From Patescibacteria group bacterium (lineage in GTDB: Bacteria > Patescibacteriota > Microgenomatia > UBA12405 > JAHJSD01), in assembly GCA_018830585.1 (NCBI GenBank), contig JAHJSD010000078.1, positions 1-39,180 on the forward strand: a stretch of 39,180 nt of DNA, given 5' to 3'. Under the pieces are notes generated by a model. The model was not told where the DNA came from and ran no database searches. It was given only the letters and a program-made list of their open reading frames with translations. A program made the translations under genes and the position numbers. This document shows positions 7,203 to 37,726 of this stretch, in pieces. Positions within the stretch are counted from its first letter, which is position 1, and the number at the start of each line of letters is the position of its first letter.

Positions 7203-7205
7203 AAT

Positions 7206-8189: not shown

Positions 8190-8193
8190 TTTT

Positions 8194-8832
8194 ATGAGCA
8201 ATATAATCTATCAGCTTTATCAAGAGCTTTATAAAAAACACGGCGACCCGGTGAAACTTTGGCCTCAGTGGTGTGCCAAAAAGAAGAGTAAGAAATTGAG
8301 AGATTTGATTGCTATCGGAGCTATCTTAACCCAAAGAACTAGCTGGCGAAATGCGGATATAGCCTTAAATAATCTTAAACGAGAGAGTTTGCTTTCACTA
8401 AAGGCGATCGCAGAGCTTAATTCCCCTGATAAGTTAACAGAGCCAATCAGGCCTGCTGGTTTTTATCAAACCAAGCCTAAACGGCTTTTGGGTCTTGCTT
8501 CTTTTGTAATTAAAGAATACGGAGGTTTAGAAAATTTTATGAGAGAGGACTTAAAATCAGCAAGAGAAAAACTGCTTGGTCTTTATGGAGTCGGACCGGA
8601 AACTGCTGATGTTATTCTTCTGTACGCCTTAGATAAACCGAGTTTTGTTATCGATGAATATACAAAGCGACTAGTTGTCAAAAGAAAATTAGCCGAAAAG
8701 CCGGAATACAATTTCCTAAAACAGCTTTTTGAAGAAAGCCTACCCCGGGATGTAAAGATTTATCAGAACTACCATGCCTTAATTATCGTAGAACAAAGAG
8801 GAAAGAAAGCCTCTATAATGAGAGTTGTCTAG
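8194..8832 (+). CDS. endonuclease III-like HhH-GPD protein without a C-terminal Fe-S Cys cluster
   Basis: LLGLYGVGPETADVILLYALDKPSFVIDEYTKRL matches the EndoIII HhH plus the catalytic-Asp region. No Cx6Cx2Cx5C motif at the C-terminus. Confidence 0.7.
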   Translation: MSNIIYQLYQELYKKHGDPVKLWPQWCAKKKSKKLRDLIAIGAILTQRTSWRNADIALNNLKRESLLSLKAIAELNSPDKLTEPIRPAGFYQTKPKRLLGLASFVIKEYGGLENFMREDLKSAREKLLGLYGVGPETADVILLYALDKPSFVIDEYTKRLVVKRKLAEKPEYNFLKQLFEESLPRDVKIYQNYHALIIVEQRGKKASIMRVV

Positions 8833-8838
8833 ATAAAA

Positions 8839-9531
8839 ATGACGAAATCAAAAGCCTGGAATTGGACAGTTGCATCTGCTCCCTGGTGGGAAGAACCGGC
8901 GTCTGAAATTTACCCTCTACTTACAAGGTGGCAAAAGCAGGGATTTAACAAGCTTTTGGATTTAGGTTGTGGTATAGGAAGACACGCAGTATTATTCGCC
9001 AAAAATGGTTTTAAAGTAGACGCCAGCGACCTTTCTCAAGATGGTATCAGAAAACTAAATAACGTTGTTAAACAGAAAAGTCTGGAGATAACTACAAAAG
9101 TTGCAGACATGTTGTCCCTTCCCTACGAAGACAAATCTTTTGATTGTCTAATTGCTTTCCATGCTGTCTACCACACTAATGACACAGGAATTGGAAAAAC
9201 CATAAGCGAAATAAAAAGAGTATTAAAAAGAGAGGGTGAGGCCTTTGTTACTTTTAACTCCCAAAACAGTTCGGATTATAAAGACCGGGATAATAAGCAT
9301 CTAACAAAAAACACGATAGTCAAAAGTAAGGGTCATGAGGCTGGGATACCACACTATTATGCCAGCAAAGACGATATTGAAAAGTTGCTAGCAGGCTTTG
9401 AAATCATTGAATTTTCTTATAAAGAAGAATACTACTCTGATTATACAGGCGCTCATTATTTTGTTTTAATTAAAAATTCTAAACAACAGGTTGAACCTGA
9501 AGCCTTTTTATTTCCTCCCACTTCACTTTAA
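8839..9531 (+). CDS. class I SAM-dependent methyltransferase
   Basis: Motif I LLDLGCGIGRH, an acidic residue after beta-2 (VDASD), and motif LIAFHAVYH. Confidence 0.8.
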   Translation: MTKSKAWNWTVASAPWWEEPASEIYPLLTRWQKQGFNKLLDLGCGIGRHAVLFAKNGFKVDASDLSQDGIRKLNNVVKQKSLEITTKVADMLSLPYEDKSFDCLIAFHAVYHTNDTGIGKTISEIKRVLKREGEAFVTFNSQNSSDYKDRDNKHLTKNTIVKSKGHEAGIPHYYASKDDIEKLLAGFEIIEFSYKEEYYSDYTGAHYFVLIKNSKQQVEPEAFLFPPTSL

Positions 9532-9572
9532 TCCGCCTTCGCGAAAATCCCGAAGGGATCCCTTTGGGATTA
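9532..9572. repeat. palindromic module TCCGCCTTCGCGAAAATCCCGAAGGGATCCCTTTGGGAT
   Basis: Near-identical copies at 20856-20892 and 32467-32507. Two of the three sit immediately after a stop codon (9531, 32466). Confidence 0.75.
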
Positions 9573-9592
9573 ACCCCCTGGAAGTTTATTGA

Positions 9593-9620
9593 TGAGAAAA
9601 CCCTTTAAGCGTTTTCTCAG
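9593..9620 (+). promoter_or_regulatory. inverted repeat TGAGAAAAC-N9-GTTTTCTCA containing the TTCTCAG half-site
   Basis: 9-bp arms at 9593-9601 and 9611-9619. The right arm extends to TTCTCAG (9614-9620), the heptamer repeated at 732-749 and 10221-10238. Could equally be a terminator-like hairpin for the upstream block. Confidence 0.3.
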
Positions 9621-9680
9621 TCGTAATTAGTAAATTCTAATAGTTAAGGATTCTCGTTTGAAAAGAAGGAGGTGAGTAAA

Positions 9681-10319
9681 TTGAAAACAAGAGCGATTTT
9701 AATTTCAATGGTTTTTTTGGGTGTTCTTTCTTTGGTCGGGGCTCTTGGGATCGGTTCTGTCAAAGCTCAGGGAGGTCTTGGCTACTCCAACATTATTCAG
9801 AAGTTAGTTGACCGCTTTGGTTTAAAAACCGAAGAGGTTCAGCAAGTTTTCGATCAAGAAAGGACCGAACGGCAAGGGCAAATACAGCTTAGGTTCCAGG
9901 AACGTTTAGACCAAGCAGTCAAAGACGGAAAGATCACTGAAGAACAGAAACGGGCGATCTTAGACAAGAAAGCGGAAATGCAGGCTGATTGCCAAAATTC
10001 CCAAGGATTAAACCCTGATGAACGGCGAACCAATATGGAAACCCACCGGCGGAAGATGCAAGCCTGGGTGGAGGAGAGCGGGATTGACCCGACCCTTTCC
10101 CCGGTTTTTTGGGTAAAGGACGTGGAGGTGGGTTTAGAGGGTTTGGCTTTGAGAAATAAACCAGAGCTAAAACCCACAGTTCAGGTTAGCACCCCCTATT
10201 TAAAAAATAGGGGGTGCTTTTTCTCAGTATTTTCTCAGATTTTATTTATAGAATTGCAGCATGGCGAAGAAAGAAAATTTATCCAAATCCAGAAAAGATC
10301 GGTTTATAAGTATCATTAG
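9681..10319 (+). CDS. secreted coiled-coil-rich protein, 3' end apparently frameshifted
   Basis: SD AAGGAGG (9665-9671) favours TTG 9681 (MKTRAILISMVFLGVLSL signal peptide) over the track GTG 9672. After about 10100 another frame reads GFLGKGRGGGFRGFGFEK-stop (stop 10157-10159) ahead of a terminator. The annotated frame instead reads through that terminator to 10319. Confidence 0.5.
   Translation: MKTRAILISMVFLGVLSLVGALGIGSVKAQGGLGYSNIIQKLVDRFGLKTEEVQQVFDQERTERQGQIQLRFQERLDQAVKDGKITEEQKRAILDKKAEMQADCQNSQGLNPDERRTNMETHRRKMQAWVEESGIDPTLSPVFWVKDVEVGLEGLALRNKPELKPTVQVSTPYLKNRGCFFSVFSQILFIELQHGEERKFIQIQKRSVYKYH
10188..10223 (+). terminator. intrinsic terminator
   Basis: AGCACCCCCTA (10188-10198) / TAGGGGGTGCT (10208-10218), a perfect 11-bp stem followed by TTTTT. 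Confidence 0.8.
10221..10251 (+). promoter_or_regulatory. direct repeat TTCTCAG-N4-TTCTCAG (10221-10227, 10232-10238) plus AT-rich -10-like TATAGA
   Basis: Same heptamers, same 11-bp phasing and same downstream TTTNATTTATA context as at 732-763. Located 10-40 nt upstream of the exporter operon ATG 10261. Confidence 0.5.
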
Positions 10320-11622
10320 GGGTTTACTAAACAGCCGTAAGAAGATTGCTGTTTTCCTGATGATCCTGTCGATTGTGGGTTTTGCCGGATGGAAAATTTT
10401 AGGTAATAAAAAACAAGAGTTGCAGTACCAAATGGCCAAGGTAGAAAAAGGAACGCTTGTTGTTTCAATATCAGCCTCAGGAACAATCTCGTCCGCAAAT
10501 AGTGTAGGTGTAACAACCAAAGCTGGCGGCACCGTAACTCAAGTGTATGTTAAAGATGGAGACACTGTTGTCAAAGGTCAAAAATTAGCGGAAATCAATT
10601 TAGATGACGAAGCAAAAGAGAGGCAAGCGGCAAGTTGGGTAAGTTATCTTAACGCTCTAGAGGGTGTTAAAACCGCGGAGGCGGGAAAAATAACCGCTGA
10701 CATTGGGATGTGGGAGGAGCGACAGGCGATCTTTGATGCCATAGATGATATTGATTACAAAAACAATAACAGTATAAATCCCGACACGAAAAAGGAATAC
10801 ACAGATTCGGAGAGAATGATAATCGACAAAACCTTGGAAGAAGCCCAAAAGACTTTTGTAGCTTTGGAACTTAAATACAAAAATGCGGATGCTGATATAG
10901 CTTACGCCAAAGCAAAAGTAGCATCTTCATTGAGTTCTTATCAACAATTATCATCCACAATTACCGCCCCCGCCTCCGGAAAATTAACTAACTTTAGCCT
11001 TTCACCAGGGGTTTATATACAATCCTCTTCGACCACAAGCAATGAGACTGGAGCGGTAACAATATCTTCACAAAAAATCGGAGTGATTAAAAGTCCTGAA
11101 GGCAGACTCCAAGCCACCGTTAACTTATCAGAAATAGACATTATCAAAGTCGAGCCTGGCCAAAAATCGACTTTAACGATTGATGCCTATCCCGATAAAA
11201 CATTCACAGGCTCGGTACTTTCAGTAGATACCAGCGGCAAAATTAGCTCGGGTGTTACTACATACACAATTATTGTCTTGTTAGACTCAACTATCATAGA
11301 CATCTACCCGAATATGGCGGTGAACGCAAATATCATTCTCGATTCAAAAAGCGATATTTTATTAGTCCCCGTGAACGCAGTTCAGTCACAGAACGGACAA
11401 GCAACAGTTCGTGTCATGCAAAATGGACAAGTGAAAAACATTCCGGTCGAGACAGGGCTTTTTTCGGACACCCAGACGGAAATTATCTCTGGAATATCCG
11501 AAGGAGACGAGATAATTACTAACATTATTACCCCAACTGTTCCAAGTAATGGCTCGCAAACAAGAGACACTTCGCCATTTGGAGGGGCTGGTGCGGGCGG
11601 TATGATGAGGATGGTCCGTTAG
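10261..11622 (+). CDS. HlyD/MacA-type periplasmic adaptor (membrane fusion protein)
   Basis: N-terminal TM (IAVFLMILSIVGFAGW), lipoyl-like GTVTQVYVKDGDTVVKGQKLAEI, a long coiled-coil middle and a C-terminal beta-barrel. Operon context with a MacB-type ABC pair. Confidence 0.8.
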   Translation: MAKKENLSKSRKDRFISIIRGLLNSRKKIAVFLMILSIVGFAGWKILGNKKQELQYQMAKVEKGTLVVSISASGTISSANSVGVTTKAGGTVTQVYVKDGDTVVKGQKLAEINLDDEAKERQAASWVSYLNALEGVKTAEAGKITADIGMWEERQAIFDAIDDIDYKNNNSINPDTKKEYTDSERMIIDKTLEEAQKTFVALELKYKNADADIAYAKAKVASSLSSYQQLSSTITAPASGKLTNFSLSPGVYIQSSSTTSNETGAVTISSQKIGVIKSPEGRLQATVNLSEIDIIKVEPGQKSTLTIDAYPDKTFTGSVLSVDTSGKISSGVTTYTIIVLLDSTIIDIYPNMAVNANIILDSKSDILLVPVNAVQSQNGQATVRVMQNGQVKNIPVETGLFSDTQTEIISGISEGDEIITNIITPTVPSNGSQTRDTSPFGGAGAGGMMRMVR

Positions 11623-12346: not shown

Positions 12347-12392
12347 AAACACAAACTTAAATACTTTAAAATTTTTACATTTTTAATATAAA

Positions 12393-12508
12393 CCCGTTTC
12401 AAAAGTGATCGCGAACGAGTGAAACGAGTGTGGCGATCTTGTTTTTAAAGCCAGATTGCCGCGTCGTTAACACTCCTCGCAATGACGTAAAGAGTTTTGA
12501 AACCAGTG
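12393..12508. mobile_element. 116-bp foldback MITE-like element, copy 2 (inverted relative to copy 1)
   Basis: 3 mismatches to copy 3. Lies between the ABC ATPase and permease genes. Confidence 0.8.
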
Positions 12509-12554
12509 GTATGCGTCTTTGATATTTGGTATTTAATTTTTAATTTTAATTATT

Positions 12555-16560: not shown

Positions 16561-17387
16561 GTGAAAATCCCGACGTTACGTCGGGAGAGGAATCCCCTCG
16601 CCTCCTGTCATTCTGACCCGCCCAAAGCTACGCAGTTGCTGGCGGGGAAGAATCCCCGTGAAAACAGCAATTTGCTGATCCCAAAGGGGCCGCGCCCGCC
16701 ATCGCTACCCGCCCAGAACTACGTAGCTGTTGGCGGGTTGCGGGCGGGGATTCTTCGTCATCAGAATTCCTCAGAATGACGGTGGAGAGTAAGGGATCGA
16801 GGTTCAAGATGATGGCCAGAGCAGCACAGTCATTCTGAGCGTAGCGAAGAATCCCCATGAAACCAGCAACCTGCTCTAATCCAAGGGGATCCTTCGTCGT
16901 CCCGACGTTACGTCGGGGTTAGGATAATAGGAAGGGGTGAATTTTGACCGCTCATTGATACGATCTTTGAAATGAGCGGTCATTTTAAAGCTTGGAAATT
17001 GGAATTAATTCTAAAAAACAAAACCCCTATTCAACATTGGGAACAAGAGGCCTCTTCTTCCGTCATTCTGAGCGTAGCCCCGTACCGTTCGGTACAGGGC
17101 GAAGCGAAGAATTTTACCCTGTACCCTATGTGGTGCGGGGCCCCTAATTTCCTGGCAACTTGCTTGTCTTGACGGGCCGCGCCCGCCATCGCTACCCGCT
17201 CAGAACTACGTAGCTGTTGGCGGGTTGCGGGCGGGGATCCTTCGTCATTAGAATTCCTCAGGTGCCGGCCGGAGCAGTCTCGTCATTCTGACCCTGAGGC
17301 TTTGTCGAATGGGGAAGAATCCCCTTCCCTCGTCATTCTGACCCCGCAGCGGCGGGGGAAGAATCTATCGAAGCGTAAATTTCGCGA
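16561..17387. repeat. largest cluster of GC-rich nested palindromic repeat modules
   Basis: CCCGACGTTACGTCGGG at 16569-16585 and 16901-16917. An 88-bp direct repeat 16687-16774 / 17174-17261 (3 mismatches). GTCATTCTGA...GAAGAATC units at 16607-16660, 17062-17110 and 17281-17365. 16606-16660 is the reverse complement of about 33051-33105. Confidence 0.85.
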
Positions 17388-20192: not shown

Positions 20193-20855
20193 GCTCGTTG
20201 AACATAGAAGGATGATTGGTAGCGGAGATAGTCGGCAGCTTGCTCACTCAGGGGATTGTTCTATCATAGAGGGTCCTTGTTGTTACGACACTCATACTTT
20301 ACCTGGACCACCCAAAAGCTTTCGAGATGCGGTGGGGGTAGCGACAGAAAGATTGAGACAAATGCACCCGACTCTTGTAGCGCCCAGAAGGAGAAGAAGG
20401 TCATCGGGTAACGGATAACCTCCGCTAACGACAATTGGTGTTTGGCAGTGACTGCTTTGAAAGAGTTTAAAAACTTTGAGTTTACCCTTCCGGAACTATT
20501 TTAGTTATCTATCATCTTTGAATTATGGGAAATAGGGTCGGGATTTGCCCGAACCAAAAGGAATCTCTCGGTTGTGATTCTCGAGGCAGTGTTTGTCCGC
20601 GTTTGGTATCTGTACCTGTCTGGGCTGGCCAGGAGGGCAAGAGCGATTGTGTTCGGCTAACAGCGCGTTGTTCTTTGACCAGTGCCGAACTTAGGGCCGG
20701 AATAGATTACTCCGAGGCAAAACTTCCTCCTGTAAAAAGAGATGTAAAACCGTCAATCTTCCCCGGTTGATAAGGTATCTTGTTTTATTTCTATTTTTGA
20801 CGACTTTCTTCGCTGTTTCTTTCATAAAAAGAGTCATTTTTTCTCTTATTTTGGT

Positions 20856-21080
20856 CCGCCTTCGCGAAAATCCCGAAGGGATCCCTTCGGGGCCCGAGGC
20901 TTTTCAAGCCTCGGATGGATAGCGAGCCTGAGTGTAAATGTTGTTTTCGCTTCCACCTTCGCTAAGGCTTCGGTGGACAGGTCGGCGCCTGCCTGCCGGC
21001 AGGCAGGGATTTCAGCTTTTGAACGGAAGAAACGTTTGTCTATCATACGAAGAATCCGAGGCCTGTTAGACCTCGGAGCT
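20856..21080. repeat. GC-rich palindromic repeat modules
   Basis: TCCGCCTTCGCGAAAATCCCGAAGGGATCCC (copy of 9532-9572), CCGAGGCTTTTCAAGCCTCGG, GCCTGCCTGCCGGCAGGCAGG (20988-21008), CCGAGGCCTGTTAGACCTCGG. Confidence 0.75.
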
Positions 21081-23506: not shown

Positions 23507-23536
23507 ACACACGGGCTAAAGCCCGTGTGTTCTGTT
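23507..23536 (+). terminator. hairpin ACACACGGGC-TAAA-GCCCGTGTGT
   Basis: Perfect 10-bp stem 3 nt after the cupin stop, with a weak T tract (TCTGTT). Related copies at 17470-17492 (inverted) and 28886-28905. Confidence 0.5.
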
Positions 23537-23552
23537 AAAACTGATAAGTTTA

Positions 23553-23645
23553 CGGCTTCGCCCCGTACCGTCTGGTACGGGGTTTCGCTGGATTCTTCGC
23601 TCCGCTCAGAATGACGGGGAAAGGAGGTTTCTCTTTTAACGTAAC
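23553..23645. repeat. GC-rich palindromic repeat modules
   Basis: CCCCGTACCGTCTGGTACGGGG (23561-23582) followed by GATTCTTCGCTCCGCTCAGAATGAC. Confidence 0.7.
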
Positions 23646-23697: not shown

Positions 23698-24084
23698 TTA
23701 ACCGGTGTAGCGGGCTCTGTTTATTTGCCAGGGCTTTCTTTGGACAATTTTTTCGTCTATACGGGTAGTAGCCCTTCCGCCGATCGTTACTCCCCGTAAG
23801 GGCTGGCGAGGATTGGTTGGCACTATTCCCAAAAAAAACCCAGGCTTTTTTACCACAACTACTTTTGCTCCAATTCTGATTTGACGGAAAGTTGGGCCGA
23901 TACTTGTCATAATTTCCAAACCAAAACTCCCTCTCGGCACCGCCAGTCTTTGGTGGTGTGGAAGAACCAGCCCGTTTCTCGGAAACCGGAGTCCGTCAGC
24001 GCTGTTGACATATTCATTTCTCCGTCCGCCGGTTGTTTCAATTGCTATCCAATGGTTAAGCCCGGCCCGCAGTCTTAGTCTCAT
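23698..24084 (-). CDS. orphan Arg-rich 128-aa ORF (doubtful; may be non-coding RNA)
   Basis: Track ORF. On its strand a consensus TATAAT (plus coordinates 24096-24101) lies 11 nt before the ATG, with no SD. Composition is Arg/Gly/Pro-rich and GC-richer than typical genes here. No motif recognised. Confidence 0.25.
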   Translation of the reverse strand: MRLRLRAGLNHWIAIETTGGRRNEYVNSADGLRFPRNGLVLPHHQRLAVPRGSFGLEIMTSIGPTFRQIRIGAKVVVVKKPGFFLGIVPTNPRQPLRGVTIGGRATTRIDEKIVQRKPWQINRARYTG

Positions 24085-24149: not shown

Positions 24150-24262
24150 TATCTTTTCCACAGACGCTGGTTTTCGAAAATATCGTGAGGATGATGGGGA
24201 GTAATTAATTTTTTCGGGTTTTCACCTAAAATTTCGATTTTATCTTTCGGATAAAGCAATCC
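24150..24262 (-). pseudogene. orphan 3' fragment of a DUF362 gene (last ~36 codons plus stop)
   Basis: 24154-24258 is 97/105 identical, ungapped, to 28911-29015. The minus-strand frame reads LLYPKDKIEILGENPKKLITPHHPHDIFENQRLWKR-stop, against SLYPKDKIEILGENPKKLTTPYRPHDTFENQRLWKK-stop in the intact gene. Confidence 0.85.
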
Positions 24263-24363
24263 TGAGCTTGCTGTGTCCTTCCATAGCCATAGGAGCTTCA
24301 ATTTACCCTAATTGTTCGATAAAAACTTGACAAAAACACTCCCATATTATAGGATCAGTCAAG

Positions 24364-27300
24364 ATGTTAAAAGATCAGGACTCTTCAGGTCCAAGAGCGC
24401 TGACGGTGTGTTCTCGCTGGTCAGTAGTTCCATCTGCTGATTCAGCAACTTTCTCCCCCGAGGGTCAGGTAAAACAGTTGTTGGCTCGGGTAAAAGACCG
24501 TTTGGATAGAGGGGGGTCTGCCCGGAGAGGAACGACAGGGCCGTCTGGTCAGATTAGAACTATTGTAACGAGCAAACATCCTGGACCAAAAAGACTTGTT
24601 TGGCTTCCTGGCCCTCTTTCTGGATCAGCCGGGTCGTTAATTAAACCAGCCATGCTTCTTTCCGGGCCTTTAGAGGCGGTCAGATTACCGATTGAATCAC
24701 CAACAGGAGTTGGTAAGAGAAACACAGTAGCAGTCAGCGGACCGGTGAACCCAGTAGAAATGACAAGGGTGTTTCGTTCCTCAATAGGAACAGTAGAAAC
24801 AATTCAGTCTGAAAAGGCCGGCGATAGACAAAAAGGGCCAACAGGAATTTTGTCTGAACTGTTGGGAACAAGAAGGGGCGAAAAGAACGCGGGAGGAGAA
24901 GTAAAAGCTCCGACGCCGAAAACCAAATCAAGACAGACCAGGACAACAGAAAGAAGACCGCAAACAGTTTCTTTAACACATCAGCCAGCTCCTCTTTCAG
25001 AGACTCTTTTTGGAGGGTTATCTGATCTGCCAAGAATGTTATCTCTCGATCCTGTTTCAGTTAGCCCTGTTCCCAGTCCCAGTAAGGATTGTCCGATTTC
25101 ACCCAGAGCCGCTTCGGAAGGGTTAGTCAGAGTTGAGCAACCAGAAATAATCAGACCAAGAAGAGCAGTAAAAGGAGTAAGAGGGCAATCTTCTGGAAAC
25201 GGAAACAAAAGGGTAGAAGGAAAACCTGTTAGTTTAGTTCTGTCCCAATCATCAGGAGAACAACCAGGACAAAGAGCTGTTGCCCCGGTTGAACAAGTAA
25301 GACTTTTTAGACAACAAGTCGGGCCAACTATCACTATCCCGGAAAAACCAGAACTCTTTTTACGGGTGGTACAGAAAGCACAGGGAGAACAGAAAAAACC
25401 AGGTCTTTTGCGGAGAGTATCAGAGATAGCTGACCGAGTTTTAAATCCAGATTTCCGGTCAGAAGATACGCGGGAAGCTATGGCAAGAAGGAGAGGGGGA
25501 GCGTCTGTTGTTAATAGGCGGGGTTTTATAAGAAGAATAGGGACTGCTGTTGGAGCGGCAATGCTTGCCGCTTGCGTTCCGAAAACAGAAAAAGTGATAG
25601 GAAACCAACCACTATCAACAGCTGTTCCAGCAGGAACTCCCCGGTCGGTAGAAACTCCCCGGCCAATAGGAACACCTAAAGTTGATGTAAGAAATGATAT
25701 CCCTGTTGTGGTTGAAAAAACAGAAGCGGCGAGAAAACCTGTTACCCCTGTGCAGGTAGAGAAGACGGCAATTCCTACATCCACTCCAGCGAATCCGGAA
25801 ACTGACAAACCGCCTACCCACCAAGAACGCGTAAGTAGAGTGATAGACTTGATGTTAGATAGTGGTGAAGCAAAGCGAGTTCCAATATCAGAACTGAAAA
25901 AAATGGGGGCGGGTGTTGAAAGAAGAGAGCCGGATTTGCCTGAAAAATTAAGGCAAGCCAATAGCTTTTTGGGGAATTTTGGTATTCATTTAGAGTCAAC
26001 CCATTGGGATTTGCTGAATTTGGTTGAGCAAAGATACCAGGAATGGTTAGACGACCCCCGTTCCTTGAAAATTGATCCGACAAAAGAAGAAATAGACGCG
26101 CTTTGTCAGCAAGTTGCCGGAGAAACCGGTCTTCCATCGGAGGCTTTTGACGAACTGCTCCACCTTATCGGTTGGCGGGAGAGCGGTCTTAGGGGTAAAA
26201 AAGCAAAAGACGGCCACGGCGATATTTTTCGGGATGTGCTTGACGGTATTACTAACCCTTTTGTTTATGCCGCTATAGATTCGAACGAGGATGGCCTAAT
26301 TTCTCCTGATGAAGAACGTTACTGGGCTGTTTTTTTACCCAAAAGAGAAACCTCTCTTCCGCTCAAAGAACTTGATGAAAATTACCAGAGAGTGGCCGCG
26401 TTTAAGGTTTCTCGAGTGGATCCAAAAACAGGCCGGGAAGATGCACGGCTTCTAGGAGAAAGAATTTTGCCGGTACCAGGAAGTTTCATTGTCAACGATG
26501 CCCGCGCAAACCTCCTTTTTGGTATGGCCATCGCTCTTGACAGCATCATTCGTATTGCCGCAGATATGAATAATAACGAGGGGTCCTACAAGCAGGTTTA
26601 TGATTACCTTTTACGCGAACAACCTGAGTATCTTTTTGATAGATTTACAAAAGGTCAAAGAGAAAGCCTGAAAGCAGGAGGGAAAAGCTTATTAGATGGT
26701 CGATCATTATTTTTTGCTATGGTTTTTGCTAACTTTCATTACGGCCGAAGACAATTTGAAAGAAATATTCTTTATGGAAGCAGTGCTCGTCAGGTTTTAA
26801 GCTTGCCTGGTGATAATTTCAACAAAAGGTCGTGGTTTAAGGGCGTGACGGCGGAGACCAGCTGGGGCGATGCTCTTAAATTGGCAGTCTGGTCTTTAGC
26901 TGATCCTCAGTGGAAGCAGGCTCGCTATATTGGCCCCGGTTATTTACCGGGAACAAAAGACGATCGGTTTTATTATAATGTTGGCCCGGAAAAGCGGGAA
27001 AGACTGTCTAGAATAGCTGAAGGAAGGGTAGAATTAGCTGATCTTGAGGATGGTGAAACTCCTTTTTGGTTTTGGCAAGAAAATGCGGATCTTTTCTACC
27101 AATATCTGTTTAGAAATACTGATTCGTCAGAACCAGCCTTAGCAAAAAGGATCGCGGCAAGTAAAAGTTTTTTTAGAGAGGTTTTTAGGGAAAGTATCGT
27201 TCTCAAGCAAGATTCTTTACATTTCCCTTGGTACGGCATGGGTTCTGTCGAAAGAAGACTGTCTGTTTTTGATCAGTCAATTGGTATTATTTTGGACGGT

Positions 27301-28800
27301 CTGCAGACAGTTCCAAAAACAGACCAGGAAAGGAAATTATATATCAACGCTCTTTTCGGTTTTTCCAAAAACGCTGAAATCAGCTCTGCTGGTTTAGATA
27401 CCGATTTGGCGGTAGCCCGTTTTGATCAGGTTTACCACAAACTGGGTCAATTACAGGAACTTCATTCAACAATCCCTTCTGATCTGGTAAAGGCCGTAAG
27501 GTCTGGAAAGATACTTGACCTTGACAATTTGGTTTTGGGTTCGAAAGAAGGGTCTTTGGGAAGGATAAAGTTGGCGGAAAAATACGCAGAGATTGTTTTT
27601 AAAGGAAGAGACTTGGAATACCAACGCTTGCTTATAGAAAGAATTAAAAGTTTTGTCAGAGAGACAGGAGAAACTTATTTTAGGGACTTGGATCCGTCTG
27701 AAAAGGCGCTTTTGACATCTATGGCTCAAAATTATTTTCATTGGGATCGAAATACTTCACTTTTTAACTCGCCGGTTGAAAACGGTGTTAACGTGGTGGC
27801 TAACGGACTGATGTATCGTCTTTATGATGATCTCTTTTCTGTAACAGGCGAAAATTTTCACTCTGCTAAAATTACTGAAACTGTTTTGGCTCGGTTTTCT
27901 CGCGGCAGAAAAATTTTGGCAGAAATGACCGCTTTGGCAGAAACAAAAGTAGCAATAGAAAAAATGAGCAGTGGTCTAAATGGAGATCAGTTGCTTCGGT
28001 TTTTTCCTCCTGTCAGCTTTGAAATCTCGGCGGATTTTGAACTTGACCAACTTGCCGCTATGGTGGTGACAAAAGAAAGAGTCTCTATTAAAGATGTGGC
28101 TGATGATAAAAAAGATCAGGAAGGAAGTAGAGTGATGCTTTTACACCGCTCTTTAGCCGCTTTGCAGGTACTTTCCAGCTTGGAGAAAAAATTTCCGGAT
28201 CGAAAACTTTTTTTTGAAGAAGCAAGAAGAGAAATCTTGGAACAGGCAGTTCTTTTAACAGATATTGATTATCATTTCCCGCTCCATCTGGGAGGGAGTA
28301 GTATTTTTAACAAAAGGCACTTTTATTCTCCCAGGGGTGACTATCACAGGATTTCTGACAGATTATTTTTTTGGACTCACCCTTTATTAATCCCCGCTTA
28401 TTTGGCTGATCAACCGCCTAAACATTTTGATATAGAAACTGCCTGGCGAATTTGTGAAAAATACCAGAGCTATGCTGATGGGTCAGTTTATGCAGGTTTT
28501 TGGGAAAAGCATGAGGATTTGGTCAACGAATCTTTCAATGCAATGCTTTTAGATTCTGACAAGTTCCCGCAGGCTATGACTCCTCGTATTAGGAGGGAAG
28601 AGGAGAAAGTAATAAGGAGCCTAAAAGGAGGACAAGACCTTGACGTTTCTGAAGGAGACTATCTCCTTTTAAAAGTATATTATCTCCTTTATAAAATGAG
28701 ACTGAATCCATACGATGATAGTCATTTATCTAGGTTTGCCCTTTGGTTCAGAAAGAAGAGAATTAGTAGGGGTTGGGGAAGGGAAAGCCTGACCCGATAA
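24364..28800 (+). CDS. 1478-aa ORFan: low-complexity N-terminal region, internal Tat-like/lipobox hydrophobic segment, ~1070-aa C-terminal domain of unknown function
   Basis: Uninterrupted 4.4-kb frame. N-terminal internal repeat PVEMTRVFRSSIGTVETI / PVEQVRLFRQQVGPTITI is conserved at protein level but not DNA level. NRRGFIRRIGTAVGAAMLAAC at residues ~383-403. No catalytic motif recognised in the C-terminal part. Confidence 0.75.
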   Translation: MLKDQDSSGPRALTVCSRWSVVPSADSATFSPEGQVKQLLARVKDRLDRGGSARRGTTGPSGQIRTIVTSKHPGPKRLVWLPGPLSGSAGSLIKPAMLLSGPLEAVRLPIESPTGVGKRNTVAVSGPVNPVEMTRVFRSSIGTVETIQSEKAGDRQKGPTGILSELLGTRRGEKNAGGEVKAPTPKTKSRQTRTTERRPQTVSLTHQPAPLSETLFGGLSDLPRMLSLDPVSVSPVPSPSKDCPISPRAASEGLVRVEQPEIIRPRRAVKGVRGQSSGNGNKRVEGKPVSLVLSQSSGEQPGQRAVAPVEQVRLFRQQVGPTITIPEKPELFLRVVQKAQGEQKKPGLLRRVSEIADRVLNPDFRSEDTREAMARRRGGASVVNRRGFIRRIGTAVGAAMLAACVPKTEKVIGNQPLSTAVPAGTPRSVETPRPIGTPKVDVRNDIPVVVEKTEAARKPVTPVQVEKTAIPTSTPANPETDKPPTHQERVSRVIDLMLDSGEAKRVPISELKKMGAGVERREPDLPEKLRQANSFLGNFGIHLESTHWDLLNLVEQRYQEWLDDPRSLKIDPTKEEIDALCQQVAGETGLPSEAFDELLHLIGWRESGLRGKKAKDGHGDIFRDVLDGITNPFVYAAIDSNEDGLISPDEERYWAVFLPKRETSLPLKELDENYQRVAAFKVSRVDPKTGREDARLLGERILPVPGSFIVNDARANLLFGMAIALDSIIRIAADMNNNEGSYKQVYDYLLREQPEYLFDRFTKGQRESLKAGGKSLLDGRSLFFAMVFANFHYGRRQFERNILYGSSARQVLSLPGDNFNKRSWFKGVTAETSWGDALKLAVWSLADPQWKQARYIGPGYLPGTKDDRFYYNVGPEKRERLSRIAEGRVELADLEDGETPFWFWQENADLFYQYLFRNTDSSEPALAKRIAASKSFFREVFRESIVLKQDSLHFPWYGMGSVERRLSVFDQSIGIILDGLQTVPKTDQERKLYINALFGFSKNAEISSAGLDTDLAVARFDQVYHKLGQLQELHSTIPSDLVKAVRSGKILDLDNLVLGSKEGSLGRIKLAEKYAEIVFKGRDLEYQRLLIERIKSFVRETGETYFRDLDPSEKALLTSMAQNYFHWDRNTSLFNSPVENGVNVVANGLMYRLYDDLFSVTGENFHSAKITETVLARFSRGRKILAEMTALAETKVAIEKMSSGLNGDQLLRFFPPVSFEISADFELDQLAAMVVTKERVSIKDVADDKKDQEGSRVMLLHRSLAALQVLSSLEKKFPDRKLFFEEARREILEQAVLLTDIDYHFPLHLGGSSIFNKRHFYSPRGDYHRISDRLFFWTHPLLIPAYLADQPPKHFDIETAWRICEKYQSYADGSVYAGFWEKHEDLVNESFNAMLLDSDKFPQAMTPRIRREEEKVIRSLKGGQDLDVSEGDYLLLKVYYLLYKMRLNPYDDSHLSRFALWFRKKRISRGWGRESLTR

Positions 28801-28906
28801 AGTCCTACCAATTTCCACCAACTCGGAGGTGGTTTGTTGACACTTCGGTAGTAACTCGTTTCCGGTACCCTACCTGTTTCACTTCGGGCATAAGCCCGTG
28901 TGTATT

Positions 28907-29791
28907 TCACTTTTTCCACAGACGCTGGTTTTCGAAAGTATCGTGAGGACGGTAGGGGGTAGTTAATTTTTTCGGGTTTTCACCTAAAATTTCAATTTTA
29001 TCTTTCGGATAAAGCGAGCCTAAACCTTCTTTTTTGATCAGGTTCAGATAGCCGATATCCTCGATTTTAAACCCCATCAGGTAGGAGGCCAGAGAGTCGG
29101 CGGCAAGAGGATCCAAAGAGGCAATTGCCCAACCGGAGTTGATTGGGGTGCCGTTACAGGGACCGTTTCCTTGCATACCGATAGTACCATCAATAATTGC
29201 CAGATTGGGAAAGGTGTGTTTGGCGATTTCGGCCAAAATCCAATGGATGTTTTTGCCTTGATGAACCTTTCCCCGGTTGCCGAAAAGTTTTTGTTGGATT
29301 GCCCCCATCAAAAGGTTTTTAATTGCCAGAGTTGTTACCACTGCATCGTGAGTTTTCGCTCGGCAGATAGAAACAATAAAAGGCGATTGAGTATAAATTT
29401 TTGCCAGAGGGAGGATTACTTTGCCATTGGGATATTTTATGGTCACTTTTTCGGTAAGACTTTTGGCGGAATCCAATAATTTAACTTGCGGATTTTTAGC
29501 CAATTCTAAAAAACCAAACCGGTTGAAACCTCCGTCGCTGTTGCCTAAAGTAGCCTCTTCAGCGATGATAATTTCGCCTTGATGAAACTTCTCAATTGAG
29601 TAGACGAATGCTTTTACCGCTTCGAACGGAGTGGCGGATAGTTCCGTATAAGTGGAAACGAAATTAACTTTTACCACTATCCGGTCAACTTTTGCCAATT
29701 TCTCTTTCAAATTTGGCATAATTGCTTTCAGAGCTCTTTGGACTCCGGAATAAGAGCTTAGACTTTTGGCCAAAGATACTTGAGACGGCAT
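28907..29791 (-). CDS. DUF362 domain-containing protein
   Basis: 294 aa. VKVNFVS, ICRAKTHDAVVTTLAIKNLLMG and IIDGTIGMQGNGP match the DUF362 pattern as I recall it. Confidence 0.8.
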   Translation of the reverse strand: MPSQVSLAKSLSSYSGVQRALKAIMPNLKEKLAKVDRIVVKVNFVSTYTELSATPFEAVKAFVYSIEKFHQGEIIIAEEATLGNSDGGFNRFGFLELAKNPQVKLLDSAKSLTEKVTIKYPNGKVILPLAKIYTQSPFIVSICRAKTHDAVVTTLAIKNLLMGAIQQKLFGNRGKVHQGKNIHWILAEIAKHTFPNLAIIDGTIGMQGNGPCNGTPINSGWAIASLDPLAADSLASYLMGFKIEDIGYLNLIKKEGLGSLYPKDKIEILGENPKKLTTPYRPHDTFENQRLWKK

Positions 29792-29898: not shown

Positions 29899-32466
29899 AT
29901 GGTTAACCCGGCTTCCTGGAGCAGACCGACAGAACTTCTCTTGAAAGAGCTTGGTACTTCCGCCGACGGTCTGAAGAAGATCGAGGCTAAAAAACGGCTG
30001 GAAAAAGACGGTTTGAACGAGATCAGACAAGAATCTTCGCGTCCGGTTTTAAGGATTTTATGGTTACAGCTTCAAAACTGGCTGATAATAATCCTCTTTT
30101 TAGCCGCGGCAGTTTCTTATTTTTTGGGTGAACATCTTGAGGGAGGGGTAATCACCAGCCTGGTGCTTTTAAGCGTGTTTTTTGGTTTTTTCCAGGAATA
30201 TCGCGCCGAAAAGGCTTTGGAGAAGTTAAGAAAATATATCAGCCACAAGATAAGAGTAAAAAGAGACGGCCAGTGGCAGACTTTGGAAAACAAAGAATTG
30301 GTCGTGGGAGATTTGGTGGAATTAAGGATCGGGGATATTGTCCCGGCCGATATCCGACTGATTTCTTTGGACGGATTGGCCGTTAACGAATCGGTTTTAA
30401 CCGGCGAATCCGAGCCGGTGGTCAAGGATCTGAAAACCGTCAGCAAAAAGCGCAGCCAGCCTCAAGACTTAAAAAATATGGTTTTTATGGGAACTTCGGT
30501 TTCTTTAGGCTTGGCAACCGGGGTGGTGACGGCGGTGGCTAAAGACACTTTTTTTGGAAAAACAGCCAAGCTCTTGTCTGCTATCCCCAGAGAGACCGAT
30601 TTTCAAAAACAGATAAAAAATTTCGGCTCTTTTCTTTTCAAGGTTACTGTGATTATGACCACCTTCGTATTTTTGGCCAACGCTTTTTTGGAAAAAGGAA
30701 TCTTCGAATCGCTCCTTTTTGCTGTTGCCTTGGCGGTAGGAATTGCTCCGGAGATGCTGCCGGCGGTAATTACGGTAACTTTGTCTCAAGGCGCTTTAAA
30801 AATGGCCCGCCAAAAAGTAATCGTCAAAAGGTTAGCTTCCGTTGAGGATCTGGGAAATGTAGACACTTTGTGTACCGATAAGACGGGCACGTTGACCGAA
30901 GGCAAATTTTCTCTTGCCGGTTTTAAAAACGTTAACGGTGATGATTTGGATCAGGAGTCGCTCAGGTTAGCCTTGCTTTGTACCGGTGGTTTTAACCATC
31001 AGCGTAAAGTGGTTCCGACTAATGCCACCGACAAAGCTCTTTGGGAAAGTGGAATAGCCGGAAAACTTAAAAAAAGCTTGGCAAGCTATCGGGTTTTAGA
31101 TGAAAACGAATTTGATTTTGAGCGGAAGCGGATGAGTGTTTTGGTCGCTAAAAAGGAGCGGTCTGAAAATTATTGCTTGGTTGTCAAGGGAGCTCCGGAA
31201 TCTGTTTTGGCGGCAGTTTCCGAAGTTATAGTTAAGGGCGAATCAGTTTTGATCAAAAAACAGAAAAGAGAGGAAATTGCAAAACAGTTGGCCGGCTATG
31301 AAAGTTTGGGTTACCGGGTGATTGCTTTGGCTCGGAAAAAAATGAAAGAGGCCGATTCTGTGATCAAAGACGAGAACAATCTTACTCTTTTAGGGTTTTT
31401 GCTTTTCAGTGATCCGGTTAAGGCTTCGGCGGCCAAGTCTTTGGAATTATTCCAAAAGTTAGGGGTAAAAATTAAAATTATCAGCGGCGACAGCATCGGT
31501 ATAACCAAGAGCATTGCCGTCAAAGTCGGCTTGATCGGCCAGACGGAAAAAATAATCAGCGGAGAAGACTTAGCCCGGCTTCATGATAGGGATTTTGATC
31601 AATGCGTGAATCAATGCCGTGTTTTTGCCAGGGTTACTCCGGAGCAGAAGTATAAGATTGTTGCTTCATTGAACCGGGAAGGACATATCGTCGGTTTTTT
31701 GGGTGACGGAATCAATGATGCTCCGGCTTTAAAGGCGGCTGATGTAGGTATTGCCGTTGATACCGGGGCGGCGATTTCTAAAGAAGCGGCGGATATTATT
31801 TTGTTGAAAAAAGATCTGCAGATTTTAGCCGAAGGAATTGGAGCGGGGAGAAAAACGTTCGGCAATATTATGAAATATATTTTAAATACCATCAGCGCCA
31901 ATTACGGCAATATGTTTACCGTCTCCGCCTCATCTCTATTTTTAAAATTTATCCCGCTTTTGCCTTCGCAGATACTTTTAAACAACTTTATCAGTGATAT
32001 CCCTCTTTTGGCAATTGCTACCGACAATGTTGATGGTGAATTTGTTAAAAAACCGAAACGGTGGAATATCCGGCTGATCGGGATGTTCATGCTTTACTTC
32101 GGCCTGATCAGTTCGTTTTTTGATTTTGTTTTGATTTTGTTTTTGCTTCTTTTTTGGAAGGTCGGCCCCGGTGTTTTCAGGACAGCTTGGTTTATTGAGT
32201 CCTCGCTTTCGGAAATAATGGTTACTTTTTCGATCCGGACCAAGTTGCTGTTCTTCCGAAGCAAACCGAGCCGATGGCTGATCGTTCTTAGTTTCTTTTC
32301 CAGCTTGCTGGTGGTTTTAATGCCTTTTCTGGCTTTCGGCAGAGAGGTTTTTGAGTTCAGTCTTTTGCCGGTATCGGTTTGGATTTGGATTGCTTTGGTA
32401 GTGGTCTCTTATTTCATCGTTACCGAAATGGTTAAACATAAATTTTTCGCTAAGTTTGAGTTTTAG
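29899..32466 (+). CDS. mgtA: magnesium-importing P-type ATPase (MgtA-like)
   Basis: TGES, DKTGTLT, GDGINDAPALK, and the MgtA-type TM segment QILLNNFISDIPLLAIATDNVDGEFVKKPKRW. The track start 29851 is a TTG; ATG 29899 (MVNPASW) is preferred. Confidence 0.85.
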   Translation: MVNPASWSRPTELLLKELGTSADGLKKIEAKKRLEKDGLNEIRQESSRPVLRILWLQLQNWLIIILFLAAAVSYFLGEHLEGGVITSLVLLSVFFGFFQEYRAEKALEKLRKYISHKIRVKRDGQWQTLENKELVVGDLVELRIGDIVPADIRLISLDGLAVNESVLTGESEPVVKDLKTVSKKRSQPQDLKNMVFMGTSVSLGLATGVVTAVAKDTFFGKTAKLLSAIPRETDFQKQIKNFGSFLFKVTVIMTTFVFLANAFLEKGIFESLLFAVALAVGIAPEMLPAVITVTLSQGALKMARQKVIVKRLASVEDLGNVDTLCTDKTGTLTEGKFSLAGFKNVNGDDLDQESLRLALLCTGGFNHQRKVVPTNATDKALWESGIAGKLKKSLASYRVLDENEFDFERKRMSVLVAKKERSENYCLVVKGAPESVLAAVSEVIVKGESVLIKKQKREEIAKQLAGYESLGYRVIALARKKMKEADSVIKDENNLTLLGFLLFSDPVKASAAKSLELFQKLGVKIKIISGDSIGITKSIAVKVGLIGQTEKIISGEDLARLHDRDFDQCVNQCRVFARVTPEQKYKIVASLNREGHIVGFLGDGINDAPALKAADVGIAVDTGAAISKEAADIILLKKDLQILAEGIGAGRKTFGNIMKYILNTISANYGNMFTVSASSLFLKFIPLLPSQILLNNFISDIPLLAIATDNVDGEFVKKPKRWNIRLIGMFMLYFGLISSFFDFVLILFLLLFWKVGPGVFRTAWFIESSLSEIMVTFSIRTKLLFFRSKPSRWLIVLSFFSSLLVVLMPFLAFGREVFEFSLLPVSVWIWIALVVVSYFIVTEMVKHKFFAKFEF

Positions 32467-33160
32467 TCCGTCGAAAGCGAAAATCCCGAAGGGATCCCTT
32501 TGGGATTCTAAGGCCCCTGTATCCTTCTGTAGCCCTGCCGGCAGGCAGGGATTCCTGTCTCGTAAGGCTTGCTCAGAGTGATAGAAGGGAAATAGGCGCT
32601 GGCGCTGGATTCCTCTTTCTGCCGGAGGCAGAAATTCGGAATGACGGAAGAAGGAGGCGCTTCGCTGCCTGTCTTGTCCACCACGGGCGGGCCTGCCTGC
32701 TCGCCTCGCTGAGCGGTCGAAGCGGGCCGGTAGGCGTAACCAGCCCTCGGCTTTCCCACTGCAGTGGAGTCGCTCAGAATGGCTTTCTTGACTCGTCATC
32801 CTGAGTGTAGCGAAGGATCCCCTTTTCGATGGCAAGTTGTCGAAGATTAGGGGCCTCGTACCACCACAGGGTACAGGGAAAATTCTTCTCCCGACGTAAC
32901 GTCTGGGCGATGACGAAGGACCCCTCTCTGGAACAACCTCGTCATCCTGAGGAATTCTGATGACGAAGAATCCCCGCCCGCATCGCCTGACGGCTTCAGC
33001 GTCTGGCGGGCGCGGCCCTTGTCTAAGCAAGTTGCTGGTATATGAGGGGGGGATTCTTCCCCGCCAGCAACTGCGTAGCTTTGGGCGGGTCAGAATGACG
33101 GGAAACGAGAGGATTCTTCGAGATTAGAATAACAAGAGAGTCCGCCTTCGCTTTGACCTT
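32467..33160. repeat. cluster of GC-rich nested palindromic repeat modules (partly the inverted counterpart of 401-715 and 16561-17387)
   Basis: Module copy of 9532-9572 at 32467-32507. CTGCCGGCAGGCAGG at 32535-32549. 32890-32952 is the reverse complement of about 613-673. 32962-33018 is the inverted GGGCCGCGCCCGCCA...CTTCGTC unit. 33051-33105 is the inverse of 16606-16660. Track ORFs 32317-33030-, 32508-32759- and 33023-33247- are repeat translations. Confidence 0.85.
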
Positions 33161-35704: not shown

Positions 35705-35880
35705 TCGGTTTTAATGATGGAAATAGACCTTTTTCAATTGCCTCTGTTTTTAATTCTCTGAGTAGCGCCAGACCCCGCTTTCTTTGCCTCCTTGCTTCCG
35801 GGGTTTTAAGTATCCGGCCGTCCGGCCCGGTACCGATCATAGACACTCTTAAGGCATTTAAAGCTGAAGCTCTGGTTGAA

Positions 35881-35996
35881 CCTGTTTCAAAAGTGATCGC
35901 GAACGAGTGAAGCGAGTGTGGCGATCTTGTTTTTAAAGATAGATTGCCGCGTCGTTAACACTCCTCGCAATGACGTAAAGAGTTTTGAAACCAGTT
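35881..35996. mobile_element. 116-bp foldback MITE-like element, copy 3
   Basis: Between the convergent Clp-like and mltG genes. 3 mismatches to each of the other two copies. Confidence 0.8.
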
Positions 35997-36019
35997 GGTT
36001 TTAAAATCGTTTTCGCCAG

Positions 36020-37099: not shown

Positions 37100-37726
37100 T
37101 TAATTAGGTAATGTCTTTTTTTGGGGAATAAGACTAATTAGTTTTCCCTGAATAGAAAAATTTTCCAAGATCGGTTTATATTTCGGGTTGGCCGGAAAAA
37201 GCATCGCTCTTCCTTCGACAATTCTGAACCTTTTTAAAGTTACCCCGTTTTCATACAGGGCGGCGATGATTTCTCCGTCATTGGCTACCGGTTGGGGGGC
37301 GATGATAGCGATATCACCGCTGTTGATCCCGGCTCCGATCATGCTGTCCCCGGAGACTTCAACGGCAAAAACATTTTTCAGCCCCCGGCTTTGGAGTAGT
37401 GAGATTTTGATGTATTTGTCTACGTGATCTTCGGCAAAAAAAGCAGTCCCGGCAGGAATACTGCTGGACATCAACGGAACGGAGAAATACCCCTGGTCAG
37501 GTTGGAGTAAAGAAGGGTCTATTCTGATGTTTCTGGCCCCTTTTTTCCTCGAAAGAAGACCGGCTTCTTCCAATTTTTCAAGCTGGAGAGTGACTCCTCT
37601 AAGCGATTTAATCTGGCATCGATCCCTGATTTCTCTAATTGTTGGAGAGAATCCTAAAGTCTTAATTTGGCCGATGATGATTTCCAAGACCCTTTTTTGT
37701 TTTTCGGTCAGTTTTTGATAATCCAT
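37100..37726 (-). CDS. lexA: LexA repressor
   Basis: N-terminal winged helix LTEKQKRVLEIIIGQIKTLGFSPTIREI. C-terminal S24 peptidase VSGDSMIGAGINSGDIAII with a downstream Lys (LKRF). Confidence 0.9.
   Translation of the reverse strand: MDYQKLTEKQKRVLEIIIGQIKTLGFSPTIREIRDRCQIKSLRGVTLQLEKLEEAGLLSRKKGARNIRIDPSLLQPDQGYFSVPLMSSSIPAGTAFFAEDHVDKYIKISLLQSRGLKNVFAVEVSGDSMIGAGINSGDIAIIAPQPVANDGEIIAALYENGVTLKRFRIVEGRAMLFPANPKYKPILENFSIQGKLISLIPQKKTLPN

Follow-up and report, generated by a model that had tools for sequence, protein, structure and literature searches.

The 39,180-nt stretch of DNA scanned here (the window; contig JAHJSD010000078.1 of the Patescibacteria group bacterium assembly GCA_018830585.1) harbors a giant open reading frame (ORF) on its forward strand. 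The frame runs without interruption from an ATG at position 24364 to position 28800 (1478 codons plus stop; window numbering and forward strand unless stated otherwise) and is a genuine, lineage-restricted gene of a Patescibacteria (Candidate Phyla Radiation, CPR) bacterium. The conserved two-thirds of its product probably constitute an extracytoplasmic protein that bears a twin-arginine translocation (Tat) signal and is probably tethered to the membrane. The chances are about even that this exported, membrane-tethered protein is a glycan-cleaving, and then probably peptidoglycan-cleaving, enzyme of a new and very divergent lysozyme-like family. A preliminary description of the sequence had already pointed out the gene as the largest of the window, which was borne out (the runner-up encodes 871 amino acids (aa)), and had taken it to be real and translated. 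This is supported by a frame openness far beyond chance, by homologs and by copies of the gene in two further assemblies, L002 (99.73 % identity) and L003 (99.95 %), which carry the same locus in the same arrangement. The description had treated the ORF as one undivided unit and thereby missed an internal twin-arginine motif and lipobox (aa 384-404), which separate two unrelated parts of the protein.

An exhaustive HMMER scan, in which aa 373-1478 served as the query against 1.84 billion representatives, yielded only nine clusters of relatives. Two of them are long, namely P0002 (1094 aa, E 8e-80) and P0003 (1208 aa, E 5e-47), and the remaining seven are shorter (E 6e-9 to 6e-4). P0002 is encoded by a Candidatus Paceibacterota metagenome-assembled genome (locus L001, the sole locus obtained from the genome scan) and aligns collinearly, with 27 % identity (E 2e-87), to the window protein from residue 378 up to about residue 1400. 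Residue 15 of P0002 pairs with window residue 378, so that the homology starts at the signal. The collinear closest homolog, the nine related clusters and the pattern of single-nucleotide polymorphisms (SNPs) in aa 373-1478, detailed below, are the reasons to regard the giant gene as real. Judged from these alignments, it is a CPR gene of a very rare, unannotated family that starts at the twin-arginine signal. In the 99.7 %-identical assembly the protein carries the NCBI label of a hypothetical protein of "Patescibacteria group bacterium"; a literature search for the assembly accessions turned up no paper. The term ORFan, under which the gene had been introduced, is thus not strictly applicable, as nine distant relatives exist.

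Other searches returned little. The window protein did not match Pfam at E<=1, and NCBIfam gave nothing for the whole protein except a sub-threshold twin-arginine signal. Pfam and PHROGs searches with all ten family members at E<=10 returned nothing useful and no PF01464 match, and sequence searches of the PDB, with the single sequence and with a profile, gave only spurious matches (IcaR and designed proteins). A word-indexed homolog search with the whole protein returned its own entry alone, and the same search with the family profile returned P0010 alone. No relative was found in a scan of viral contigs, in phage genomes searched by tblastn or in metagenome-contig scans. The initial impression that the protein belongs to no recognizable family was therefore accurate for the curated libraries and did not hold against the exhaustive HMMER search. 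The distribution of the family is patchy, and synteny is not conserved among the contexts of the relatives. The P0005 gene (metagenome contig L012, locus 6981-10373) follows mreB at a distance of 13 nt and precedes GT4/WecG glycosyltransferase genes and an ABC-2 exporter; three sigma-70 paralogs are also located near this gene. P0004 adjoins a glycan phosphorylase gene. An envelope or glycan theme is thus seen in two of about five informative contexts, and the other contexts were uninformative.

The twin-arginine (RR) signal-like segment occupies aa 373-405 (25480-25578) and opens with Met373, which is also a potential alternative start. Its sequence, MARRRGGASVVNRRGFIRRIGTAVGAAMLAAC followed directly by VPK, includes the RR motif NRRGFIRR (aa 384-391), an h-region of 13 residues and the lipobox LAAC (aa 401-404), which ends in Cys404 and fits the pattern [LVI][ASTVI][GAS]C. 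The NCBIfam model TIGR01409 matched aa 383-406 with an E value of 0.057 and 13.8 bits. Seven of the nine relatives open with a Tat-type SRRxFLK signal, and the Pfam model PF10518 (TAT_signal, cut-off 22.7 bits) was exceeded by P0005 (25.3 bits) and narrowly missed by P0004 (22.2 bits) and P0007 (22.3 bits). The suggestion that the giant gene encodes a surface protein is reasonable because of this Tat-type signal and the Tat signals with which the homologs begin, and most of the protein is predicted to be extracytoplasmic. Several observations weigh against the proposed export and anchoring. The Tat match of the window protein itself stays under the curated cut-off of TIGR01409 (16.7 bits), the Cys of the lipobox is not conserved among the relatives, and 13 residues make a short h-region for a stable anchor. 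With a translation start at 24364, the signal would be located approximately 380 residues into the protein (the motif begins at residue 384), which is unusual for a cleavable signal; it is located at the N-terminus of the precursor only if translation begins at Met373 (25480). No tat, lgt or lsp genes were detected among the scanned ORFs of the window. Tat export of wall-active enzymes occurs in Escherichia coli, in which AmiA and AmiC are cell-wall amidases exported by this pathway with N-terminal signals. The giant protein would resemble them as a proposed cell-wall-active enzyme that uses the Tat route, and AmiA and AmiC differ in being amidases and in the position of their signals.

The signal is followed by a linker rich in Pro, Thr, Val and Glu (aa 406-479, 25579-25800), which aligns with a likewise Pro-rich and unconserved stretch of P0002, and by the conserved domain that defines the family (aa 480-888, 25801-27027). 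In an alignment of ten family members (alignment A3, positions in window numbering), the residues E606, H618-G619, D712, H792, G794, W850, Y855, G859, F869-Y870 and R878 are invariant or nearly so. D620, which completes an HGD motif, is replaced by Glu in one member, and the column of F791 holds Tyr in nearly all members and Phe in the window protein. E606 (codon 26179-26181, within WRESG) is invariant in all nine members that cover the column and is followed by Ser or Asn. AlphaFold models were obtained for the domain of the window protein (pLDDT 80.7, pTM 0.86) and for the short member P0004 (pLDDT 92.9, pTM 0.93). In both models, a helix terminates at the invariant Glu and is followed by a loop, by a sheet of three strands and by long helices. 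The helix-rich character attributed earlier to the C-terminal part of the protein was thereby confirmed for aa 480-888, which are modeled as mostly helical.

The four signature motifs of soluble lytic transglycosylase (SLT) domains, taken from a profile of five E. coli sequences (Slt70, MltC, MltD, MltE and MltF), have collinear counterparts in the family. The family motif TGLP..I...WRE[SN]G corresponds to ygvdp.l..AI..ES of the SLT enzymes, GDG[VM]M[NS]P to GA.GLMQ, D..AN.AFG.AI..HL to DP..NI..G..YL and [AIV]YH.G to AYN.G. An hhalign comparison of the family with the SLT profile aligned E606 with the catalytic Glu of all five transglycosylases and, at low mact, also paired the second and third motifs; comparisons with T4 lysozyme and with the FlgJ domain were uninformative, the FlgJ alignment covering 7 residues only. 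The preliminary description had noted the lack of HExxH and P-loop motifs, which a motif search confirmed, and of the SLT-type ES and GLMQ. The literal GLMQ is indeed missing, and the ES is present as E606-S607, an invariant Glu followed by Ser, within the SLT-like motif series.

Structural comparison with Foldseek pointed weakly in the same direction. The model of the window domain gave a best E value of 0.26 in the PDB, with the transglycosylase MltE and the phi6 lysin among its matches. For the P0004 model, 31 of the top 50 PDB matches were glycosidases of the lysozyme superfamily, which represent about 10 different proteins (FlgJ, Auto and AtlA of GH73, GH124, MltF, MltE, an archaeal chitinase, goose lysozyme, phi6 P5 and the type VI secretion effector Tge2). 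Foldseek probabilities were mostly 0.1-0.38 for these matches and mostly 0.01-0.05 for unrelated helical proteins. Target-normalized TM scores of 0.41-0.47 were obtained for MltE, goose lysozyme and phi6 P5 with the P0004 model, and the result was weaker for the window model. A structure search of BFVD gave nothing significant. These profile and structure checks, which had been named at the outset as the way to place the gene, hence gave no confident match to a known family and a weak bias toward the lysozyme superfamily.

A number of points speak against a lysozyme-like enzyme. The correspondence of the motifs was recognized after the fact, and the literal GLMQ and AYNxG are absent from the window protein, which has DGITNP and FHYG instead. 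The hhalign probability was 0.3-0.5 % (P 0.12-0.2) and thus not significant, and no single structural match reached significance (best E 1.3 and a probability of at most 0.38 for the P0004 model). Pfam, NCBIfam, PHROGs and PDB sequence searches gave nothing useful, and a specific role at the cell wall is not supported by a conserved gene context of the relatives. The different lines of evidence are individually weak and consistent with each other, and the chance that a very diverged lysozyme-like core lies inside the larger domain is put at even or slightly better. The giant protein is not filed as a member of the SLT/GH23 family, because the PF01464 profile was not matched and the literal motifs are missing. 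A lysozyme-like or lytic-transglycosylase-like mode of action is still considered the most likely one for the core of its family.

The same results can be read differently, namely that the conserved domain is no enzyme of the lysozyme superfamily and represents a new helical extracytoplasmic fold, which serves as a binding or scaffold module in host attachment or envelope structure. The insignificance of every Foldseek and profile match fits this idea, as does a domain size of 340-410 aa, twice that of SLT domains, with extra helices at both termini. The protein is also large, lineage-specific and predicted to be surface-exposed, and it contains an EF-hand/dockerin-like Ca2+ loop (DSNEDGLISPDE, aa 639-650, 26278-26313; EF-hand_5 E 0.2). 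This loop lies in an insertion exclusive to the three long members, and P0002 has DRNRDRRLEPWE at the corresponding position. A binding or scaffold fold nevertheless appears unlikely. Polar residues of catalytic appearance occupy the invariant positions (E606, H618-G-D620, D712, H792), which are not confined to a hydrophobic core, one superfamily dominates the weak structural matches and does so with the higher Foldseek probabilities, and neither repeats nor adhesin-type beta domains are present. The role in host attachment that had been proposed for the gene received no specific support for the same reasons: a repeat-type adhesin architecture was not found (no Pfam repeats, no repeats by self-BLAST and a mostly helical modeled part), there are no beta domains and the conserved module resembles lysozyme-superfamily enzymes.

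The conserved domain shares with SLT/GH23 enzymes (family-1 lytic transglycosylases, Pfam PF01464, such as MltE, Slt70, MltC and MltF, together with goose lysozyme and phi6 P5) the order of its motifs, with a helix that ends in Glu-Ser/Asn, continuing with Gly-x-Met/Thr-polar, D-x3-N-hydrophobic-x2-G-x-A and aromatic-His/Asn-x-Gly. The predicted topology of helix, Glu, loop, three-stranded sheet and helices is also alike, MltE, MltF, goose lysozyme and phi6 P5 are prominent in the Foldseek lists, and like MltA-F the giant protein is predicted to be exported and membrane-tethered. It differs in the additional invariant HGD motif of its family, in loops that are 6-60 residues longer, in a Tat signal in place of a Sec/lipoprotein signal and in the addition of a 590-aa C-terminal and a 372-aa N-terminal extension. 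GH73 enzymes (FlgJ, Listeria Auto, Enterococcus AtlA) provided the top Foldseek matches of the short member (5dn4, 5dn5, 3fi7, 7qfu), and the E-S-G after the helix in the family resembles the LESGWG of GH73; the E values of these matches are at least 1.3 and the Pfam Glucosaminidase model was not matched. The VirB1-like SLT+CHAP hydrolases of Patescibacteria type IV secretion systems (PMC12102498) are large proteins of CPR genomes that degrade peptidoglycan. Those proteins are recognizable by existing hidden Markov models and are located in type IV secretion loci, whereas the giant gene has no such neighbors and no such profile match.

According to the proposed function, the giant protein would be exported in a folded state by the Tat pathway and anchored in the membrane through either a lipidated Cys404 or its uncleaved signal. 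The Pro/Thr-rich linker would space the conserved domain from the membrane. Glu606 would act as the general acid with which aa 480-888 cut a beta-1,4-linked glycan, most likely peptidoglycan, either of the bacterium's own wall during remodeling or of the wall of a host. The domain would then represent an extremely diverged new branch of the lysozyme superfamily with likeness to both SLT/GH23 and GH73. The C-terminal approximately 590 aa (aa 889-1478, 27028-28797) have no Pfam match and a collinear counterpart only in the Paceibacterota homolog P0002; they may form a helical extension, and a role in targeting or binding is a guess.

Ahead of the signal lies the N-terminal extension (aa 1-372, 24364-25479). 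It is basic (net charge +27), of low complexity and devoid of Tyr, and its composition (Arg 10.6, Ser 10.4, Gly 9.9, Pro 9.6 and Val 9.6 %) agrees with the Pro/Ser/Gly/Arg/Val-rich character reported for it before. None of its 372 codons is a stop, and the other two forward frames contain 25 and 17 stops. The probability of such an open frame is about 6e-10, and none of 20000 shuffled sequences stayed open. The extension exhibits three-base periodicity, with a third-position composition (A 0.43, C 0.11) that is distinct from positions 1 and 2 and matches the signature of the linker within the certain coding region. Among synonymous codons, its preferences are unusual (CCA 0.43 vs. 0.10; GGA 0.50 vs. 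0.25). A sigma-70-like promoter (TTGACA-17-TAGGAT, 24327-24355) ends 9 nt before the ATG at 24364, and its position would give a leaderless mRNA or one with a very short leader. A -10-like hexamer directly upstream of the ATG was found for 6 of 17 other window genes, compared with 15 % of all ATGs, and none of the internal Met codons (97, 133, 225, 373 and 400) is preceded by a -10 box or a Shine-Dalgarno sequence. Throughout the window, many genes have a TAnnnT hexamer 5-12 nt before the ATG and lack a Shine-Dalgarno sequence (for example 6454, 10261, 21501, 22010, 29791 on the reverse strand and 24364), a pattern which suggests that leaderless mRNAs or very short leaders are frequent in this organism.

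No homolog of the extension was detected; the word-indexed query with this low-complexity region missed even the window's own protein, so that the sensitivity of the search is doubtful. The extension is absent from the closest relative P0002. In P0003, roughly 450 residues precede the RR/hydrophobic segment, the gene has a promoter and a terminator of its own upstream, and the long region is unrelated to the N-terminal region of the window protein. By sequence comparison, a region ahead of the signal is thus a recurrent feature of the family.

Two further readings of this part of the locus were considered and discarded. An antisense ORF (24981-25961, reverse strand, 326 aa) was dismissed as a gene because it lies across the signal, the linker and the beginning of the homolog-supported domain on the forward strand; the T-poor, purine-rich sense strand explains its open frame. 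The notion that the purine-rich 5' third of the gene is a structured RNA was dropped, as Rfam and tRNA scans of the window were empty.

The extension contains a motif in two copies, VNPVEMTRVFRSSIGTVETI (aa 128-147, 24745-24804) and VAPVEQVRLFRQQVGPTITI (aa 306-325, 25279-25338). The coordinates reported previously for its 18-aa core (24751-24804 and 25285-25338) were exact. The two copies form the best ungapped off-diagonal self-match of the N-terminal 385 residues (score 49), a score that was reached by 4 of 300 shuffled sequences, and BLASTP of the protein against itself revealed no internal repeat. The duplication exists and is borderline. Its synonymous differences had been taken as a sign of selection at the protein level, and this argument is undercut because copy 1 is not conserved in the 99.7 %-identical assembly L002. 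Codon changes relative to L002 were counted across the shared 16 kb. The extension shows 8 nonsynonymous and 3 synonymous changes, aa 373-1478 of the same gene show 0 and 2, lexA shows 2 and 9, three other genes show 0 and 3, and all coding sequence outside of the extension shows 2 and 14. Of the replacements in the extension, six are located within motif copy 1 (a cluster of seven SNPs at 24769-24794), which reads PVEMTRTFPSPVRTAETI in L002. These replacements and the 8:3 ratio contradict protein-level selection on the motif, and the extension is lineage-specific, basic, fast-evolving and probably disordered, with little or no constraint on its amino acid sequence, and does not form a conserved domain with a motif.

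Two mechanisms that might have generated the SNPs of motif copy 1 were rejected. A diversity-generating retroelement is contradicted by the lack of a reverse transcriptase or template repeat in the window and by similar SNP clusters between genes and within lexA, those of lexA being mostly synonymous. Gene conversion between the motif copies does not account for the pattern either, as just one of the six replacements shifts copy 1 toward copy 2. The lexA gene (37100-37726, reverse strand) has 11 SNPs relative to L002 within 140 nt (37424-37563), mostly synonymous, and this cluster resembles a tract recombined in from a diverged strain; it contrasts with the mostly nonsynonymous cluster in the extension.

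Two start codons have to be weighed against each other for the giant gene. Translation from 24364 is the likelier case, with a somewhat better than even chance, and the extension would then form a poorly constrained, disordered cytoplasmic tail; it is most likely translated because a leaderless-type promoter is located directly at this ATG. The competing view is that the functional start is the ATG at 25480 (Met373), which would yield an ordinary 1106-aa Tat-exported lipoprotein precursor, with the upstream 372 codons being non-functional; they could be what is left of an upstream gene after a fusion, or could have arisen recently de novo. The relatives, all of the close and most of the distant ones, start at the Tat signal, and the short h-region followed by a lipobox is typical of a cleavable signal. 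The missing homologs, the atypical CCA and GGA usage and the replacement-rich, neutral-looking SNP pattern, with a density about four times that of the 16 kb overall, are likewise in line with a start at Met373. On the other side, a neutral frame of 372 codons would hardly have stayed open next to frames with 17 and 25 stops, and three-base periodicity is present. The sole promoter-like site is located at the ATG at 24364 and not at Met373, and P0003 independently has a long region before its RR segment, with its own promoter and terminator. Initiation at Met373 is consequently regarded as the less probable case, and translation from 24364 is preferred.

With a start at 24364, the arrangement of the signal would be peculiar. 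Known internal Tat signals, for example that of the actinobacterial Rieske protein Sco2149, come after transmembrane helices that are inserted by the Sec pathway. The giant protein would share with these the position of its twin-arginine motif away from the extreme N-terminus, but a soluble, disordered region of 380 residues would precede the motif here and not Sec-inserted helices. Two lineages, those of the window and of P0003, have a long region ahead of a twin-arginine segment inside the protein, and this is the basis for a far-reaching and rather improbable idea. The family would not simply be a diverged lysozyme and would be a new class of Tat-exported envelope enzymes specific to ultrasmall CPR bacteria, with a cytoplasmic tail, hypervariable in the window, that controls export or activity of a wall-cleaving domain at the interface of symbiont and host; such a topogenesis or regulatory arrangement would be previously undescribed.

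The giant gene is flanked by a 119-nt direct repeat (24154-24272 and 28912-29030, 89 % identical). The earlier observation that it lies alone in a repeat-bracketed segment was confirmed, as no second gene is present between the arms. The right arm is the functional 3' end of a DUF362 gene on the reverse strand (28907-29791), and the left arm, also on the reverse strand, is a relic of the last approximately 36 codons of that gene (ending in YPKDKIEILGENPKKLITPHHPHDIFENQRLWKR and a stop). A GC-rich terminator hairpin at 28885-28903, shared by the convergent giant and DUF362 genes, has a near-identical copy at 23512-23530 after a cupin gene (CGGGCTAAAGCCCGTGTGT after the cupin gene and CGGGCATAAGCCCGTGTGT after the DUF362 gene). 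The hairpins and the 119-nt repeat suggest that an ancestral cupin-hairpin-DUF362 junction was split by inserted DNA, and the bracket has the look of a scar left when DNA inserted at the DUF362 3' end. The neighbors in the window (cupin, DUF362, a P-type ATPase and a ClpB-like protein) are unrelated. Between the cupin terminator and the DUF362 relic, a 128-aa ORF (23698-24084, reverse strand) with a local GC content of 52 % and no Pfam match is called as a gene in L003 and carries a 1-nt deletion (23831) in L002.

This apparent scar raises the question of origin, and a mobile origin would be compatible with the proposed lysozyme-like function. The giant gene might have arrived as cargo of a small integrated mobile element or as the lysin module of a decayed prophage, whose insertion into the 3' end of DUF362 duplicated about 119 nt together with the terminator hairpin. 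The displaced copy of the DUF362 end, the duplicated hairpin, the gene's own promoter and terminator and the patchy family distribution without conserved synteny would be expected from such an event. However, no integrase, transposase or any other gene was found between the repeats, in GC content the segment does not stand out from the flanking DNA, and no empty site was found, as L002 and L003 have the same arrangement and the metagenome scans contained no relatives. The features of an integrative genomic island are thereby limited to the repeats, with neither a recombinase nor an empty site found. An origin from a phage lysin is unsupported because the scans of viral contigs and phage genomes gave no relative, and PHROGs were likewise without a match. 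A mobile origin is therefore possible and on balance doubtful.

Further repeats were noticed elsewhere in the window. A 120-nt intergenic repeat occurs in three copies that are 95-98 % identical (1479-1598, inverted; 12391-12510; 35878-35997) and may be a regulatory element or similar to miniature inverted-repeat transposable elements; a cluster of 10 SNPs relative to L002 (35749-35857) adjoins the third copy. A GC-rich element (containing GGGCCGCGCCCGCC and, further on, GCGGGCGGGGATyCTTCGTCATCAGAATTCCTCAGAATGACG) is found in both orientations at at least four sites with 81-98 % identity (451-582, 16587-16781, 17174-17261 and 32940-33119; possibly also 23556-23620) and has no Rfam match at gathering thresholds. 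A 42-nt hairpin-containing repeat (with the sequence CGCGAAAATCCCGAAGGGATCCCTTTGGG) is located at the 3' ends of genes (9527-9568, 20850-20891 and 32463-32504) and is probably a shared terminator or an element similar to repetitive extragenic palindromes (REP). A 786-aa protein encoded at 3632-5992 on the reverse strand matches Pfam only with a dockerin type I domain at its C-terminus and represents another large, probably extracellular protein of this CPR genome.

CPR bacteria, or Patescibacteria, live attached to other microbes, and to our knowledge it is largely unknown how they remodel their own wall or breach that of a host. What had appeared to be a giant ORFan resolves into a conserved, putatively enzymatic exported part and an unconstrained, lineage-specific extension. 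If the proposed function is true, a family which searches of Pfam, NCBIfam, PHROGs and PDB sequences fail to reveal would probably belong to the lysozyme superfamily and be routed through the Tat pathway. E606 provides a named residue that makes the protein a concrete candidate for a wall-cleaving enzyme in CPR bacteria, and two confident AlphaFold models are available for a domain that has no significant structural neighbor. The twin-arginine motif behind a region of 380 residues would, if real, be unusual in Tat biology.

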